From Escherichia coli (GTDB lineage Bacteria; Pseudomonadota; Gammaproteobacteria; Enterobacterales; Enterobacteriaceae), in assembly GCF_002854065.1 (NCBI RefSeq), contig NZ_CP024152.1: DNA of 64,000 nt; one strand, given 5' to 3'. Below the pieces are notes generated by a model. That model had not been told where the DNA came from. It did no database searches and saw nothing but the letters and a program-made list of their open reading frames with translations. This document shows, in pieces, positions 2,289 through 30,850 of this stretch (position 1 is its first letter; each line of letters opens with the position of its first letter). Position numbers and translations under genes: made by a program.

Positions 2289-3491
2289 ATGATGAAGAAA
2301 AATCATATTACCCGCACCATCATTGCATCTGCTGTATTATTTTCCTTTAACGCTGCAGCAGCGACGTCATATTTTGAAGCGCGTAACGATGCAATGGGTG
2401 GCACCGGGGTAGCATCTTCCCATTATGGTGTGGCACCTCTGGCAAACCCGGCTTTACTGACAAAGCACAACAGCAATGATGATTTCAGCCTTCTTCTGCC
2501 GTCTGTTGGGGCACAAGTTGCTGATCCTAATGATGTATCAAATAAAGCTGATGATGTTAAAGATGACTGGGATTTGTTTGACAGTGCTGTAGATAACCAG
2601 CATGGCGTACAACAGGCAGCGGCAAATCTTAAACATCGTCTGCAGGAATTCCGCAATATCAATGCAGATGCTCAGGTAGGTGTATCAGCTGTAGCAGCCA
2701 TGGCAAATGACACTCTGCCGTTTGCCCTTATGGTCAAGTCTTACGGAACTGTCAGCGTAAACGGAAAAGTAAACGATGCAGACCTGGATTATCTGGACAA
2801 AGTTGCCAATGGAACAATTACCGACGTCGATAAGAATGCCCTGACCTCACGCGCATTCGGGCGTGCAGCTGTAATTACCGACGTCGGAATTTCATTTGCC
2901 AAAGAACTGGAAACGGCCGGACAAAAATGGTCTCTTGGCGTCACACCAAAATATCAGCGTGTGGACCTGTTTAACTACAACGTAACGGTTCGTGATTACG
3001 ACAAAGACGATTTTGACGGTGACAAGTACCACAACACGAAAAACGGATTCAACGCCGATATTGGTGCTTATACAGACCTGAATGACAACTGGACTGTCGG
3101 TCTTGTTGCCCAGAACATCATTCCACGCAGTATTGATACTAAAGTCGTCAATGGCTTTAAAGAAACCTTCAAAGTTCGTCCACAGGCAACCGCCGGTGTA
3201 TCCTGGCATAATGACCTGTTTACCACTGCTCTTGACGTTGATCTGACTCCTGCCAGTGGCTTCACTTCTGACAGCAAACGTCAGTTTGCAAGTGTTGGTG
3301 CTGAATTTAACGCATGGAAATGGGCGCAATTGCGTGCCGGTTATCGTCAGAACATGGCATCAAACTCCGGAAGCGCCTTCACCGCTGGCGTTGGTATCTC
3401 TCCATTTGACGTCGTACATATCGATGTTTCCGGCCTGGTAGGAACTGACCACGATTACGGTGCAATGGCACAACTTCAGTTCACTTTCTGA
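2289..3491 (+). CDS. traF: TraF-like outer-membrane protein (400 aa)
   Basis: N-terminal signal peptide (AAAATSYF cleavage region) and a C-terminal ...QLQFTF ending in Phe, typical of beta-barrel outer-membrane proteins. Confidence 0.6.
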   Translation: MMKKNHITRTIIASAVLFSFNAAAATSYFEARNDAMGGTGVASSHYGVAPLANPALLTKHNSNDDFSLLLPSVGAQVADPNDVSNKADDVKDDWDLFDSAVDNQHGVQQAAANLKHRLQEFRNINADAQVGVSAVAAMANDTLPFALMVKSYGTVSVNGKVNDADLDYLDKVANGTITDVDKNALTSRAFGRAAVITDVGISFAKELETAGQKWSLGVTPKYQRVDLFNYNVTVRDYDKDDFDGDKYHNTKNGFNADIGAYTDLNDNWTVGLVAQNIIPRSIDTKVVNGFKETFKVRPQATAGVSWHNDLFTTALDVDLTPASGFTSDSKRQFASVGAEFNAWKWAQLRAGYRQNMASNSGSAFTAGVGISPFDVVHIDVSGLVGTDHDYGAMAQLQFTF

Positions 3492-26313: not shown

Positions 26314-26523
26314 TTACCGATAAATTCGACCAAGTGCTTTAATCGCAGCAATTTTTATTTCCATATCATCACTTTGACTCAATCTCTCTAATTCACGAAT
26401 GATGTTATCCGCCTGGCATCGACCTTCACCTAATGCATAGATCGCAGCAAGCGTAATGTCTTTTGATTTACTCTTCATCATTTCAAACAAGAAAGTATTA
26501 GCTATCGCAGGAGGCATGCTCAT
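26314..26523 (-). CDS. Small hypothetical protein with HEAT-like repeat signature (about 69 aa)
   Basis: Minus-strand ORF with AGGA RBS; repeated AA(I)xALG motifs; AT-rich context. Possibly a gene remnant. Confidence 0.3.
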   Translation of the reverse strand: MSMPPAIANTFLFEMMKSKSKDITLAAIYALGEGRCQADNIIRELERLSQSDDMEIKIAAIKALGRIYR

Positions 26524-26854
26524 AATCAATCCTCTTCATGAAATAAACAATGGCACTCACTTACAAACAGGAGTCCACTATCGCAAGCGACTCAACTTAG
26601 TAATATCTCTCAATTTGAATGAAAAAACCAGATGGCATGTGACAGGGAACCGTCCGCATGATGTCCGTGACCATTTAACCCCATAAACTGATAAAAAATG
26701 AATACCGGTATCTCAATGCGAAGAAATAATCTCCGTAGAATCCCCCATGAGAAAAATATCATATGGGAGAAAATCGCAATTATCACAGCCAGCGCATTCA
26801 TTATTTTCGCTGTCTTCTGGCATTAATTATTTTCAACACAAAAAGGAAAAAACA

Positions 26855-27031
26855 ATGAATCTGGTAGACGCCTTTGTCAAAAAAGTAATATCCGGTCCAT
26901 ATGAAGAATATGGAAAATGGTGGATAGATGTTGAATACATTTCATGGGGTGTTCCCGGGAAAACAAGACTGATGTTTGAGTCAAAGGAGCAGGCACTGGA
27001 AGTTAAAGAAGGGTACAAATTTTTAACGTGA
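26855..27031 (+). CDS. Hypothetical small protein (58 aa)
   Basis: ATG at 26855 preceded by AAAAGGAAAA; followed by a hairpin at 27047-27077. Confidence 0.35.
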   Translation: MNLVDAFVKKVISGPYEEYGKWWIDVEYISWGVPGKTRLMFESKEQALEVKEGYKFLT

Positions 27032-27095
27032 GATCTCTTTTTGTTAAAGGGCAGGAAGCGGTAACTCCCTGCCCTTAGTTACGTTTCCAGGCTTA

Positions 27096-27203
27096 TCAGT
27101 CGACAAGTTCCCGGATCAGTTCCAGAACAGCAATCAGCGCGTTTGCAACGGCAACTACTGCCCTGAGAACGATGATTAACAGATTAATCATCCGCTTCTC
27201 CAT
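27096..27203 (-). CDS. Candidate type I toxin, DinQ/TisB-like hydrophobic peptide (35 aa, or 31 aa from the ATG at 27191)
   Basis: Manual translation of the minus strand gives MEKRMINLLIIVLRAVVAVANALIAVLELIRELVD; GGAG sits 6 nt before the internal ATG; single predicted TM helix with a charged C-terminus; not in the 60-aa ORF track. Confidence 0.4.
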   Translation of the reverse strand: MEKRMINLLIIVLRAVVAVANALIAVLELIRELVD

Positions 27204-27980: not shown

Positions 27981-28003
27981 CGGCGGCAGAAAACCTGCCG
28001 CCG
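27981..28003. terminator. Bidirectional hairpin terminator shared by pndA and the 27690-27941 gene
   Basis: CGGCGGCAG-AAAAC-CTGCCGCCG perfect stem with T-rich flanks on both strands. Confidence 0.55.
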
Positions 28004-28012
28004 TGTTGCCCG

Positions 28013-28165
28013 TTAACGTTTAACTTCGTAGGCTAACGTTGCCACAAGCACTGTGTTTCCCTGCTGGAGCCGGAGTCCGCAAAGCGAATCCCTCACCATC
28101 CAGACAAAACACAGAATCGTCACACAGATGACGATTAACATCATTAAAAACGTTCGCTGTGGCAT
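28013..28165 (-). CDS. pndA: PndA, Hok-family type I toxin (50 aa)
   Basis: Manual translation: MPQRTFLMMLIVICVTILCFVWMVRDSLCGLRLQQGNTVLVATLAYEVKR, with the Hok-family pattern of a TM helix followed by SLC and AYE. Below the ORF-track size cutoff. Confidence 0.8.
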   Translation of the reverse strand: MPQRTFLMMLIVICVTILCFVWMVRDSLCGLRLQQGNTVLVATLAYEVKR

Positions 28166-28223
28166 CATAGCCCCTCCATTGCCTTACGGCGGTTATCGGG
28201 CTACTATAATGTTGTCTAGGCAT
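28020..28223 (-). CDS. pndC: PndC, Mok-like overlapping reading frame enabling pndA translation
   Basis: Overlapping frame (ORF 28020-28358) with an ATG at 28223; hok/mok/sok architecture. Confidence 0.5.
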   Translation of the reverse strand: MPRQHYSSPITAVRQWRGYDATANVFNDVNRHLCDDSVFCLDGEGFALRTPAPAGKHSACGNVSLRS

Positions 28224-28280
28224 TACAGTAGAGCCCTTGGTTGATTGATAAAAAAATCTCCAGGGGCTTTCTGCTGTATA
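28217..28280 (+). ncRNA. pndB: PndB, Sok-like antisense RNA (approximate)
   Basis: Plus-strand -10 TATAAT at 28205-28210; the transcript would be antisense to the pndC start region; imperfect hairpin plus U-rich tail near 28230-28280. Confidence 0.4.
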
Positions 28281-28437
28281 TGGTTTAGTTAACAAAGAGA
28301 GCCAGTGTTCCACTGAGCAAAACCAGTAGCTATTCATGCTTACAATTATCTTCTCCATATCTGAAATAACTCAAACAGCCCAATAGAAACATATTGTTAC
28401 ATCTAAGATCTTGAAAAGACCTCTTTGAGAAATCAAT

Positions 28438-29424
28438 ATGAGATCACGGTATGTTGATAGGATAATATATATGAAGAAACTATTGATTCGATTAATACCT
28501 GATGCAATATATGAGGCTCTGGAAAAGACAGCTCTGCATTCTGAACGCTCCCTGGAAGCACAGGCCAGATATATCCTTAGTTGCTCCGTAGATAATGAAA
28601 AACAATTAACTGGTGGTGAACGCTATCAAAGAGAAATAACCGCGCGTCTTAATCAAGCGTTATCAGAAGCTAATGAGGTCATAACAGCCATTAATCTTGT
28701 TCCCGCAAGAATTGCAGAACAATTAGGCCATCATGACGCCATAGAATCCGAAAATTGGTTCACCGGAAATGCTGTTCCTAGCTTTACAGAGCTTGACGAA
28801 TTAAGCGATATCTTTGGATGCTCTCCAGATTGGTTAAAGTTTGGCGAAAATGTACCTTATCCAAAGAGTTCTAAAGGAAGGATAAACTGGAATCGTGGCG
28901 GAGAAAAAGATATCGATGCACTTTTAGAGCCTGACAACAAAGGTCGTAAAGTCTCATCTATTCATATTTTCAGGGTAAATGAATCTGGCAATATACTAAT
29001 ACTGAGAGAATTTGAAAACAGCATAACTACAGATTTTTTCTCAACAAACCTTTACTTATCAGACAAAGAAAAAATAGGACAGGGCGGATTCCACGACCTG
29101 GTCGATTTCCTTGTAATTTTACAATCCCTTTATTTAAAATATATAAATAGCAATCTGTTAGTGAAAAGCTATAACATTAGCCAATATGTACTGGATTCCT
29201 GTTATAAGAGCGGAGAAAAGCACCCCATAACTATATGTAGTGCAGGTGAGACAAGTACCTGGTGGGAAGACATATGGCATGAAGACATGATAGCTCAATC
29301 GAGGAATAATGAGTCCTACTTCTGGGATGGTGACAAACCTCTTATTGATAGCCTTCATAAAGAACTTCAAAAAAATAACAGATTAAAGCCAAACAGTGAG
29401 TTAGATATGCCACTAATTGGTTAA
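28438..29424 (+). CDS. Low-GC hypothetical protein with N-terminal ribbon-helix-helix-like region, paralogous to TraE (328 aa)
   Basis: About 38% GC; Arc/MetJ-like N-terminus (LIPDAIYEALEKTALHSERSLEAQARYIL); shares the SPDWLKFGENVPYP motif with TraE (NPDWLNGHENYPIA). Confidence 0.5.
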   Translation: MRSRYVDRIIYMKKLLIRLIPDAIYEALEKTALHSERSLEAQARYILSCSVDNEKQLTGGERYQREITARLNQALSEANEVITAINLVPARIAEQLGHHDAIESENWFTGNAVPSFTELDELSDIFGCSPDWLKFGENVPYPKSSKGRINWNRGGEKDIDALLEPDNKGRKVSSIHIFRVNESGNILILREFENSITTDFFSTNLYLSDKEKIGQGGFHDLVDFLVILQSLYLKYINSNLLVKSYNISQYVLDSCYKSGEKHPITICSAGETSTWWEDIWHEDMIAQSRNNESYFWDGDKPLIDSLHKELQKNNRLKPNSELDMPLIG

Positions 29425-29641
29425 ACACCAATTAAAGATTATCTAGCTAAAACAACATCGTACACGCATACTGCAAAGCCCTTGGTGAGTTAATAGAAGA
29501 ATTACTAAGGGCTTATAAAAAATATATACCCCCACATTGGTGACACATTAAAATATTTTTTGTTGATGTGTTACCAGCCTGACCCAAAAACAATTTTTAA
29601 TCTTTCCGTTCGATTTAAATTCCAGAAATGGAGACTTTGTC

Positions 29642-30850
29642 ATGTCTTACAATCGACAGCCTGTCGCAGAAGATCCTATGCAGATATGGGGCGCTGTTGG
29701 TGTCCTTCTTATCCTGCTGCTGTTCGTCATATGGTTATTCTTGCCGGAAGTGGTTTACACCAGCTGCCTGATTCTTCATACCTTATGGGGACTGGTCGAC
29801 TGGGGACCATTTCATAACTATGCAGCACCACGATACAACCTGCTTGCCATGACCGGTAACAACGCCGCCAACATAAGCTATAGCCAGTGGGTTAACGTCA
29901 TGGAACAGACCATAGGTATTCTGTGGATGTACCTCTTACCTGTGACACTCTGGTGTTTGTGGGAATGGTATCAACATCCGGGACAAAGCCGTTTCACCCG
30001 CAGACCAGTAGATATTACCCGACTGCCACACATCTTTGCTTCGTTATCCCCTGCTATCGCCCCTGTACTGGCAGATGGTGATCCGAAAAAACTCTTTCAT
30101 GGTGGTAAACGACCTGAACGGCGGGTTGCTCTCACCCCGGAAGCATTTGTCGAACAGCATACTCTCATCACCAATATGCAGCTCGATGTTGCAGCTGCAA
30201 GACGATGTTTCATGGCCCAGTTGGGTAAACCTTTAACGTCCTGGAAAGACATGGCACCACATGAAAAAGCGCTCTTTGCCATATTTGGCCTTCAGTATTT
30301 CCTGGATGATCGGAAGGCAGCATTAAAGCTCATGGATACACTGAACCTCTCATGCAGAATTAAAAGCAAACGGGACAGCGGGAAATTCTGTACCCCTGTT
30401 TATTCACTGGCCAAATCAGCTTTCCAGAGAGTGATTAAAAGCAACGGAGCACAGCAATGGCTGAAACAACATCGCTACGTCCGCAGTGGGCTGGTCTGGC
30501 TGTATGCACATGACCTGCGGCTTACGCCACCCAACTGGATTTGGCTGAAAGGCGTGGACAGAACGCTGTTTTATGCATTACACCGCGCCAATACCACGAA
30601 AGGATTTATTGAAGGCGCTGGCGTGGTGGCCGTTGCACGTGCAGAGGCCGAAGCCATGCGTTTTGGTCTTCCCTGCCCTGAACCCTGTGTTGATGAAGCG
30701 GTGGAAGGCTTACGGCGGGATATGCTCAGTCTCGGTCTTATCTGGGATGAACCACAACCAGATCGCGACCGGAAACGCCGCATCCTGACCAACTGGTCCC
30801 TCACCGACGACATCCTGCCCCGCACACCTGCTACAGACAACGAATTCTGA
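29642..30850 (+). CDS. trbA: TrbA membrane protein (402 aa)
   Basis: GGAG RBS; N-terminal TM helices; size and position match R64 trbA. Confidence 0.65.
   Translation: MSYNRQPVAEDPMQIWGAVGVLLILLLFVIWLFLPEVVYTSCLILHTLWGLVDWGPFHNYAAPRYNLLAMTGNNAANISYSQWVNVMEQTIGILWMYLLPVTLWCLWEWYQHPGQSRFTRRPVDITRLPHIFASLSPAIAPVLADGDPKKLFHGGKRPERRVALTPEAFVEQHTLITNMQLDVAAARRCFMAQLGKPLTSWKDMAPHEKALFAIFGLQYFLDDRKAALKLMDTLNLSCRIKSKRDSGKFCTPVYSLAKSAFQRVIKSNGAQQWLKQHRYVRSGLVWLYAHDLRLTPPNWIWLKGVDRTLFYALHRANTTKGFIEGAGVVAVARAEAEAMRFGLPCPEPCVDEAVEGLRRDMLSLGLIWDEPQPDRDRKRRILTNWSLTDDILPRTPATDNEF

Follow-up and report, generated by a model that had tools for sequence, protein, structure and literature searches.

IncI1 plasmids are major carriers of ESBL (extended-spectrum beta-lactamase) and AmpC genes, and one product of their transfer region, TraE, has borne the standing label 'function unknown' since that region was sequenced; for MPF_I systems its function has been called 'still unknown' (PMC4027160). 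TraE was scored as non-essential for pESBL transfer by transposon sequencing (probability 0.93) (PMC4288162), and the passage of PMC6112013 that cites Komano 2000 gives it as dispensable for transfer. A second described element of these plasmids is the low-GC finQ cassette between pnd and trbA, which has been termed 'RD1' (PMC8004404). Here we describe another occupant of the pnd-trbA junction, an open reading frame (ORF) at 28438-29424 of a 64,000-nt stretch of Escherichia coli DNA (assembly GCF_002854065.1, contig NZ_CP024152.1; hereafter the window), which represents an IncI1-type (IncI-gamma/K1, MOBP, MPF_I) conjugative plasmid. On balance we lean towards reading the ORF product as an acquired accessory regulator, carried as cargo at an insertion hot-spot and belonging to a tripartite plasmid and island family of which TraE would be a very divergent member, with a possible effect on the trbABC genes next to it.

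An acquired accessory gene

28438-29424, + strand: accessory ORF as called by the NCBI annotation pipeline (PGAP), 328 aa, from the ORF list
28471-29424, + strand: accessory coding sequence (CDS) from the likelier start, 317 aa, from homologue N-termini and an AGGA
28281-29584, no strand: divergent low-GC cassette, 1,304 bp, GC 37.0%, from blastn against the empty site and the finQ site

The 328-aa ORF of the preliminary description is a real gene: it stands in the ORF list, and its product is identical to RefSeq WP_001257838.1, which PLSDB records list as a 'hypothetical protein' and current RefSeq as a 'FitA-like ribbon-helix-helix domain-containing protein'. Its second in-frame ATG, at 28471 (MKKLL...), is the start point in all homologues (12 close and 99 distant sequences align to M12), and a Shine-Dalgarno AGGA lies 8 nt 5' of it. 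Because homologue N-termini and the AGGA both fit 28471, the PGAP start at 28438 is probably 11 codons too far upstream, and the real product is probably 317 aa long.

The ORF is markedly more AT-rich than the flanking trb genes, as had been noted, with 38.1% GC (GC3 32%) against 51.0, 51.1 and 49.9% for trbA, trbB and trbC and 51.2% for the whole window. The region 28000-29700 is 100% identical to many plasmids of E. coli, Salmonella and Shigella, for example pAMSC6, and the ORF is covered in 94 of the 1,943 plasmids that match its flanks (~5%). It is intact, 100% identical in about 94 plasmids and 99-100% conserved across about 100, and tblastn places a copy at at least 90% identity in 103 plasmids; about 100 of some 1,900 IncI-type plasmids have the gene, and about 95% lack it. 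Among 5,426 complete genomes of E. coli, 103 have the ORF, likewise 99-100% conserved, and 102 of its 104 copies there are plasmid-borne.

The insertion between pnd and trbA proposed in the preliminary description is confirmed and mapped: the cassette at 28281-29584 stands in place of 120 bp of the empty pnd-trbA site (pSD107, L004 1794-2001), and the empty site is the state of most IncI1 plasmids. The ORF is therefore a horizontally acquired, foreign accessory gene. The mapped insertion, low GC and ~5% carriage, together with the DNA-binding domain described next, bear out the suggestion that it is an acquired accessory DNA-binding factor.

Two DNA-binding domains and an orphan C-terminal domain

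28471-28611, + strand: ribbon-helix-helix (RHH) domain of Arc/FitA type, residues 1-47 of the 317-aa form, from Pfam, profile and model
28612-28851, + strand: long linker helix (residues 48-70), then a helix-turn-helix (HTH) of Cro/C1 (XRE) type (residues ~75-127)
28867-29421, + strand: C-terminal domain of ~185 aa, with a helix, a three-stranded beta-meander, a long helix, a strand, and helices to a WWEDIW motif

The Arc/MetJ-like RHH segment reported at the start of the protein is well founded. Pfam FitA-like_RHH (PF22513) matches residues 15-48 at E 3e-6, and the family profile matches the Arc, AmrZ, Mnt and FitA structures in the PDB at 3e-8 to 2e-4, with weak matches to XRE proteins. Among 99 relatives, 54 match PF22513 and 31 match Arc (PF03869). 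Arg7, the DNA-contact residue of the RHH beta-strand, is nearly invariant across the 99 homologues, and the AlphaFold2 model contains the two RHH helices (11-23 and 28-44); the strand is unformed in the monomer, as an RHH domain is expected to behave. By profile match, basic strand residue and two-helix order, the segment belongs to the RHH superfamily.

Built from the family alignment, the AlphaFold2 model (pLDDT 94.3, pTM 0.87) continues from the two RHH helices into helix 48-70, a compact helical domain at 78-124, a helix, three beta-strands, a long helix, a strand and further helices. The compact domain has the five-helix cI-like fold. HTH_3 matches 13 of the 99 relatives at E<=1e-3 and 45 at E<=0.1, and PADLOC, PHROGs and NCBIfam add generic repressor matches on the HTH only.

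The C-terminal ~180 aa match no Pfam family across the 99 relatives and no PDB entry by family profile, and NCBIfam, PHROGs, PADLOC and Pfam hold no family for this domain or for TraE. The near-invariant residues of the C-terminal domain are R168, G173, G203, P252, W264 and W285. Since no catalytic constellation is conserved among them in the alignment of 99 homologues, we read the domain as a putative binding, assembly or sensor domain, not as an enzyme. A PD-(D/E)xK-like nuclease, to which the alpha-beta-beta-beta-alpha-beta order might point, was considered and rejected, as there are no conserved acidic or Lys residues. A fused toxin-antitoxin was likewise rejected, with neither conserved catalytic residues nor partner genes. 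Nor does the 317-aa protein fit a type II antitoxin of FitA/HigA type, as no toxin gene is adjacent to it here or conserved in 13 homologous contexts; the adjacent pnd, encoded on the opposite strand, is a type I system in its own right. The protein belongs to known DNA-binding superfamilies, but its tripartite layout, which ends in an orphan domain, is undescribed.

Remote homology with TraE

1379-2203, + strand: traE, remote homologue of the ORF, 274 aa, with remnants of an Arc-like RHH and a degenerate HTH, its C-terminal domain sharing the topology of that in the ORF product
28792-28863, + strand: motif LDELSDIFGCSPDWLKFGENVPYP, covering helices 4-5 of the HTH and the start of the inter-domain linker

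The preliminary description had called the ORF product a paralog of TraE on account of a motif, LDELSDIFGCSPDWLKFGENVPYP in the ORF and LEHLAECFNLNPDWLNGHENYPIA in TraE (nt 1772-1843 within TraE 1379-2203). Both are present, and they account for the two 'PDWL' sites found in total in the six frames of the window. The motif coincides with HTH_3 model positions 28-55, where helices 4 and 5 carry a signature generic to HTH domains of the Cro/C1 type, and it is therefore weak evidence of kinship when taken alone. BLASTP between the two proteins aligns the motif only (22 aa, 10/22 identities, E 5e-4 for a single comparison). HMMER comparisons between the two families reach 10-14 bits, too weak to decide, database searches from either family do not retrieve the other, and iterating tblastn with a divergent TraE from Citrobacter brought up no member of the ORF family.

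Profile-profile alignment extends the relationship well beyond the motif. With shallow alignments (12 against 15 sequences), hhalign gives a probability of 49%; with the 109-sequence family alignment against TraE it gives 94.5%, E 7.6e-8 and a score of 57 over 222 columns (ORF 2-264, TraE 34-274); and with more divergent TraE sequences added it gives 95.7%, E 1.1e-8 and a score of 63. In controls the reversed TraE profile scored 15.7 and 30 column-shuffled profiles scored at most 20.3. Identity in the profile alignment is 17%. By domain, the RHH alone aligns at E 5e-4, linker plus HTH at E 1.3e-7 and RHH plus HTH at E 1.3e-8 (110 columns), so that the bulk of the signal comes from the RHH-linker-HTH part. 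The TraE segment 'PLQVRYPQGV', read directly from the sequence, contains the RHH remnant 'QVRYPQG', which we take to resemble an Arc-type strand.

Structure prediction, which had been proposed as a check, agrees. When AlphaFold was given TraE sequences alone, the resulting model (pLDDT 75.9, 80-93 in the C-terminal half) shows two helices, a long helix, a helical bundle, a helix, three strands, a helix, a strand and helices, which is the order of elements in the ORF model. Neighbours of the TraE model in the AlphaFold database (AFDB) include entries named 'XRE family transcriptional regulator'.

It is nonetheless conceivable, if unlikely, that no specific relationship joins the ORF and TraE, each having a generic RHH and/or XRE-type HTH domain and the remainder of the alignment being over-extension. 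The generic position of the motif, the 22-aa BLASTP alignment and the low HMMER scores would all be expected in that case, and so would two further results: the C-terminal domain alone aligns with TraE at E 7.5e-3 and 5% probability, which is marginal by sequence, and no entry is common to the top-50 lists of AFDB neighbours for the two models. The full-length score of 57-63, however, stands far above the shuffled and reversed controls and grows with TraE diversity, the order of domains and secondary structure is alike in independently built models, and the C-terminal score of 20.1 exceeds all 30 shuffles (maximum 15.0). Moreover, TraE has no Pfam match, and its family profile finds no PDB sequence, RHH and HTH structures included, even at E<=10, yet it finds the ORF family at 1e-8, which places TraE nearer to the ORF family than to generic HTH proteins.

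Remote homology and a shared architecture over the N-terminal two-thirds are thus well supported, and an extension of the homology to the C-terminal domain is plausible. 'Paralog' is too strong a word for a relationship this remote, to which BLAST and HMMER are blind.

Distribution and neighborhood of traE

17-1228, + strand: tyrosine recombinase (Rci-type) directly upstream of traE, from NCBIfam Xer-type matches

The TraE sequence family is detectable only in plasmids of the IncI complex and related enterobacterial plasmids. TraE is present in about 1,900 plasmids and in nearly all of the IncI-type ones, while the ORF is rare, and the synteny rci-traE-traF is kept even in a distant Citrobacter MPF_I plasmid (L024 1148-3786). 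The adjacency of Rci and TraE also appears in the gene table of pESBL (PMC4288162). Downstream, TraF (2289-3491, + strand), which is dispensable in R64, matches a PorV/PorQ outer-membrane beta-barrel model (NCBIfam NF033709, E 4.7e-15, short of the curated cutoff).

This arrangement raises the question of whether proteins of this kind serve as accessory or architectural DNA-binding factors for a site-specific recombinase, in multimer resolution or, for TraE, in control of the shufflon. The traE gene lies directly 3' of an Rci-type recombinase both in IncI1 and in the Citrobacter plasmid, homologues of the ORF divergently adjoin a serine recombinase in one context and a tyrosine recombinase in another, and a recombinase lies within ~5 kb of homologues in about 8 of the 13 contexts seen, a proportion to be read without a background rate. 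Recombinases are common on plasmid backbones, however, and the ORF in the window has none within ~5 kb. Rci is active in vitro without plasmid accessory proteins. We regard a recombinase-associated role as very unlikely.

The pnd-trbA junction as a cargo hot-spot

28013-28168, - strand: pndA (Hok/Gef-family toxin), left neighbour, from the ORF list and the annotation of an identical plasmid
28163-28380, - strand: leader of pnd with its sok-type antisense RNA region, matched over the full model by Rfam RF01794 sok at 74.9 bits (gathering score 59)
29469-29514, + strand: degenerate copy of the pnd-leader hairpin, 46 nt, 72% identical to 28224-28269, with a 13-bp hairpin
29537-29576, + strand: second strong hairpin in the ORF-trbA gap, RNA fold z = -3.7
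29585-29641, + strand: trbA upstream stretch common with ORF-less plasmids, 57 bp, nothing else conserved
29642-30850, + strand: trbA, right neighbour and first gene of trbABC, from the ORF list and annotation

The left junction of the cassette falls inside the pnd leader, whose distal 100 nt (28281-28380) diverge from those of other IncI1 plasmids and still fit the sok model; this suggests that the cargo may have come by recombination with another hok/pnd-type locus. On the other side of the ORF, 29469-29514 resembles 28224-28269, so that a degenerate direct repeat flanks the gene. Neither this hairpin nor the one at 29537-29576 is followed by a U-run, and a search for + strand terminators turned up none in the interval ahead of trbA. 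The cassette displaces the native trbA upstream region except for 57 bp.

In other IncI1 plasmids the same pnd-trbA site holds the finQ cassette (1,250 bp, 38.5% GC; comparison locus L005), with pnd-leader sequence perfectly duplicated over 171-173 bp on its two sides. finQ and the ORF are mutually exclusive low-GC cargoes, both pointing toward trbA, and the junction (28193-29641 of the window, 1794-3385 of L005, 1794-2001 of L004) is a cargo hot-spot that is empty or holds finQ or the ORF.

Sharing this site with finQ invites a reading of the ORF product as a plasmid-competition (fertility-inhibition) factor, one that would bind DNA or promoters of a co-resident (for example F-like) plasmid and stop its transfer, as an analogue of FinQ or even as the FinU determinant. 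The two genes are alternative low-GC cargoes (38.5 and 37%) at exactly one site (PMC8004404 for the finQ site), a dual DNA-binding protein would be a plausible transcriptional inhibitor, and two F-inhibition systems, FinQ and FinU, have been reported on IncI1 plasmids, where they down-regulate F transfer-gene expression (bioRxiv 10.1101/2025.04.21.649884). Yet FinQ and the ORF product are unrelated in sequence (BLASTP E 8.3), a shared locus amounts to guilt by association, and the ORF has homologues in many replicons that are neither IncI nor enterobacterial, as well as on a Serratia chromosome. The FinU determinant is not known to have been sequenced. We consider such a role for the ORF rather improbable.

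Three further features of this region were observed. In NZ_AP027832.1 a TnpB-family (RNA-guided endonuclease) element is inserted in the pnd-ORF-trbA region. For the excA-pnd interval, at ~26314-27200 by correspondence with L001 4315-5192, the annotation of the identical plasmid gives a HEAT-repeat protein as well as dqlB, a DinQ-like toxin of type I and thus a second small-toxin locus near pnd. TrbA (29642-30850, + strand) matches the DotM/IcmP type IVB coupling-complex model (E 5.5e-21, below the curated cutoff), which fits the Dot/Icm relationship of IncI1 systems.

A wider family in accessory regions

Exhaustive searching returned 177 cluster representatives of the family at 50% identity across Proteobacteria, 92 of them at E<=1e-10; members are mostly ~300 aa long and align end to end. 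Foldseek against AFDB50 found full-length relatives in Salmonella, Actinobacillus, Acidithiobacillus, Pseudomonas, Acinetobacter, Vibrio, Acetobacter and elsewhere. None of the relatives is characterised; they are unnamed or named solely by their DNA-binding domains. A profile scan of genome contigs with a narrow alignment gave one short contig of a metagenome-assembled genome, and the metagenomic contigs with distant members were mostly too short for gene context to be read. Where context is available, each gene stands alone, typically with an intergenic stretch of 250-790 bp upstream of it, in parts of plasmids and islands that serve accessory or maintenance functions, near resolvases/integrases, ParA/ParM, toxin-antitoxin pairs and a type I restriction-modification system.

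Some members depart from the common pattern. The closest non-IncI homologue (56% identity) is chromosomal, on contig LXKR01000028 (1-12963) of Serratia sp. 14-2641, flanked by a type VI secretion system (T6SS) effector island (VgrG/VRR_NUC/TsiV/PAAR) and by an operon of the cyclic-oligonucleotide-based anti-phage signalling system (CBASS; SMODS, bacHORMA, AAA, DUF6602) with an HTH/M78 regulator pair. In variant P0112 (L022 293-1648) the RHH is swapped for a domain weakly resembling a Toll/interleukin-1 receptor (TIR) domain (CAP12-PCTIR_TIR, E 5.7e-3), and in variants P0104 and P0114 (L023 5028-6203) N-terminal transmembrane segments stand in its place; all three keep the HTH and the C-terminal domain. 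Klebsiella MPF_I/IncFII plasmids (L002 6001-7261) carry a 352-aa homologue with a 69-aa ORF behind it, and the 8-nt overlap of the two suggests possible translational coupling, and another Klebsiella plasmid (L015 5013-5599) has a 127-aa C-terminal fragment only, followed by a similarly placed small ORF that overlaps the fragment end.

Such settings could also be expected of an anti-phage or anti-mobile-element defence or immunity factor, a repressor-like silencer or sensor of incoming DNA with the C-terminal domain as its sensor. Homologues occur in defence-rich surroundings (the T6SS island and CBASS in Serratia; elsewhere type I restriction-modification with a KAP NTPase, DUF4238, HigB and ParE), Arc-type and cI-type domains typify phage repressors, IncI1 plasmids alter Salmonella phage type (PMC8004404), and the TIR-like domain of P0112 is seen by Pfam (E 5.7e-3) and by the PADLOC TIR model (E 0.05). 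That match is sub-threshold and confined to one protein, however, and defence genes are generically abundant in plasmid accessory regions. PADLOC-DB has no family for the ORF or TraE at E<=1, no homologue of the ORF was found in 50,697 phage records, and the ORF family has no conserved set of enzymatic or effector residues. A defence role thus seems about as improbable as one in fertility inhibition.

A still bolder synthesis would make the ORF family and MPF_I TraE an unrecognised tripartite superfamily (RHH, XRE-type HTH, orphan sensor) through which mobile elements act against each other. The pnd-trbA junction would then be a 'competition cassette' site, and the ORF product would inhibit co-resident plasmids or incoming phages by binding DNA and could be FinU; we hold this to be a long shot, a little less probable than either role on its own.

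Proposed function

28409-28420, + strand: candidate operator half-site TCTTGAAAAGAC, upstream of the ORF start, from a repeat search
28518-28529, + strand: second candidate operator copy TCTGGAAAAGAC, inside the CDS, 109 bp from the first

The best-supported function for the ORF product, judged from its domains, is that of a dimeric sequence-specific transcription regulator, with autoregulation probable, and both it and TraE are probably gene regulators and not parts of the conjugation machine. The ORF protein would dimerise through its RHH, as an RHH needs two chains to form the DNA-reading beta-ribbon, and the dimer would recognise specific operators through RHH and HTH together. It would regulate transcription, probably as an autorepressor, and the C-terminal domain may give higher-order assembly or sense a partner or ligand. 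The gene may also shift expression of the essential trbABC transfer genes in carrier plasmids, because no more than 57 bp of the native sequence upstream of trbA survive in them and the cassette contains no intrinsic terminator.

Several results weigh against this reading. Besides the marginal alignment of the C-terminal domain and the disjoint neighbour lists given above, HTH_3 (PF01381) matches the ORF at E 0.06 over model positions 28-55 only, below the Pfam threshold. The repeat TCTKGAAAAGAC, a post-hoc candidate, has two matches in the window (28409 and 28518) and no others, but at least two matches occur in 13% of shuffles, and no operator was identified. Consensus scans for promoters and terminators performed no better than on shuffled sequence. 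Finally, the ORF may influence trbABC, but we infer this purely from the geometry of the locus.

The preliminary description had pictured the ORF and TraE as two proteins bracketing the transfer genes, perhaps as a regulatory pair. The bracketing is only roughly right, since trbABC and nikAB lie beyond the ORF. A regulatory pair is not supported: TraE is a dispensable backbone gene, the ORF is rare, and no shared candidate operator was found at traE or trbA, TCTKGAAAAGAC being absent near both. Because TraE is near-universal in IncI plasmids and the ORF is rare, the two cannot form an obligatory pair; the ORF product is probably no component of the conjugation apparatus, and it is not an obligatory partner of TraE.

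The main value of these results is that TraE can be annotated by transitivity and that the pnd-trbA hot-spot is flagged. The ORF family ties TraE to Arc- and cI-type DNA-binding domains, of which a Pfam or PDB profile search of TraE alone shows none, and TraE becomes a candidate regulator rather than a presumed component of the 'thick pilus' or type IV secretion system. The junction, holding finQ or the ORF, is a promising site in which to seek determinants of plasmid-plasmid or plasmid-phage interaction, and the ~5% of IncI1 plasmids with a replaced region upstream of trbABC are ones in which transfer regulation could change.

Comparison with known systems

TraE of R64, ColIb-P9 and pESBL shares with the ORF product the order of RHH, long helix, HTH and C-terminal domain; the two occur on one plasmid, and both are dispensable or accessory. 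TraE differs in having a 32-aa N-terminal extension and in lacking the last ~50 aa of the ORF protein, including the WWEDIW motif, and its gene belongs to the backbone, in the synteny rci-traE-traF, whereas the ORF is a rare cargo at another site.

Among DNA-binding proteins, Arc, Mnt, FitA and AmrZ are matched by the N-terminal ~45 aa of the ORF product in RHH profile, strand Arg and predicted helix-helix arrangement. Those proteins, however, are 45-110 aa long and consist of the RHH alone or with short partner-binding tails, while here the RHH is followed by an unrelated second DNA-binding domain and a large orphan domain, with no cognate toxin gene. Compared with XRE regulators such as lambda cI, P22 C2, ImmR and the C-proteins, the ORF product has an HTH that is sub-threshold by sequence, no S24 peptidase or known C-terminal domain, and an additional RHH. 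FinQ resembles it in the pnd-trbA hot-spot, low GC, orientation and being non-essential for IncI1 transfer, but the two are unrelated in sequence, and the finQ cassette has a perfect duplication where the ORF cassette has only the 46-nt degenerate copy.

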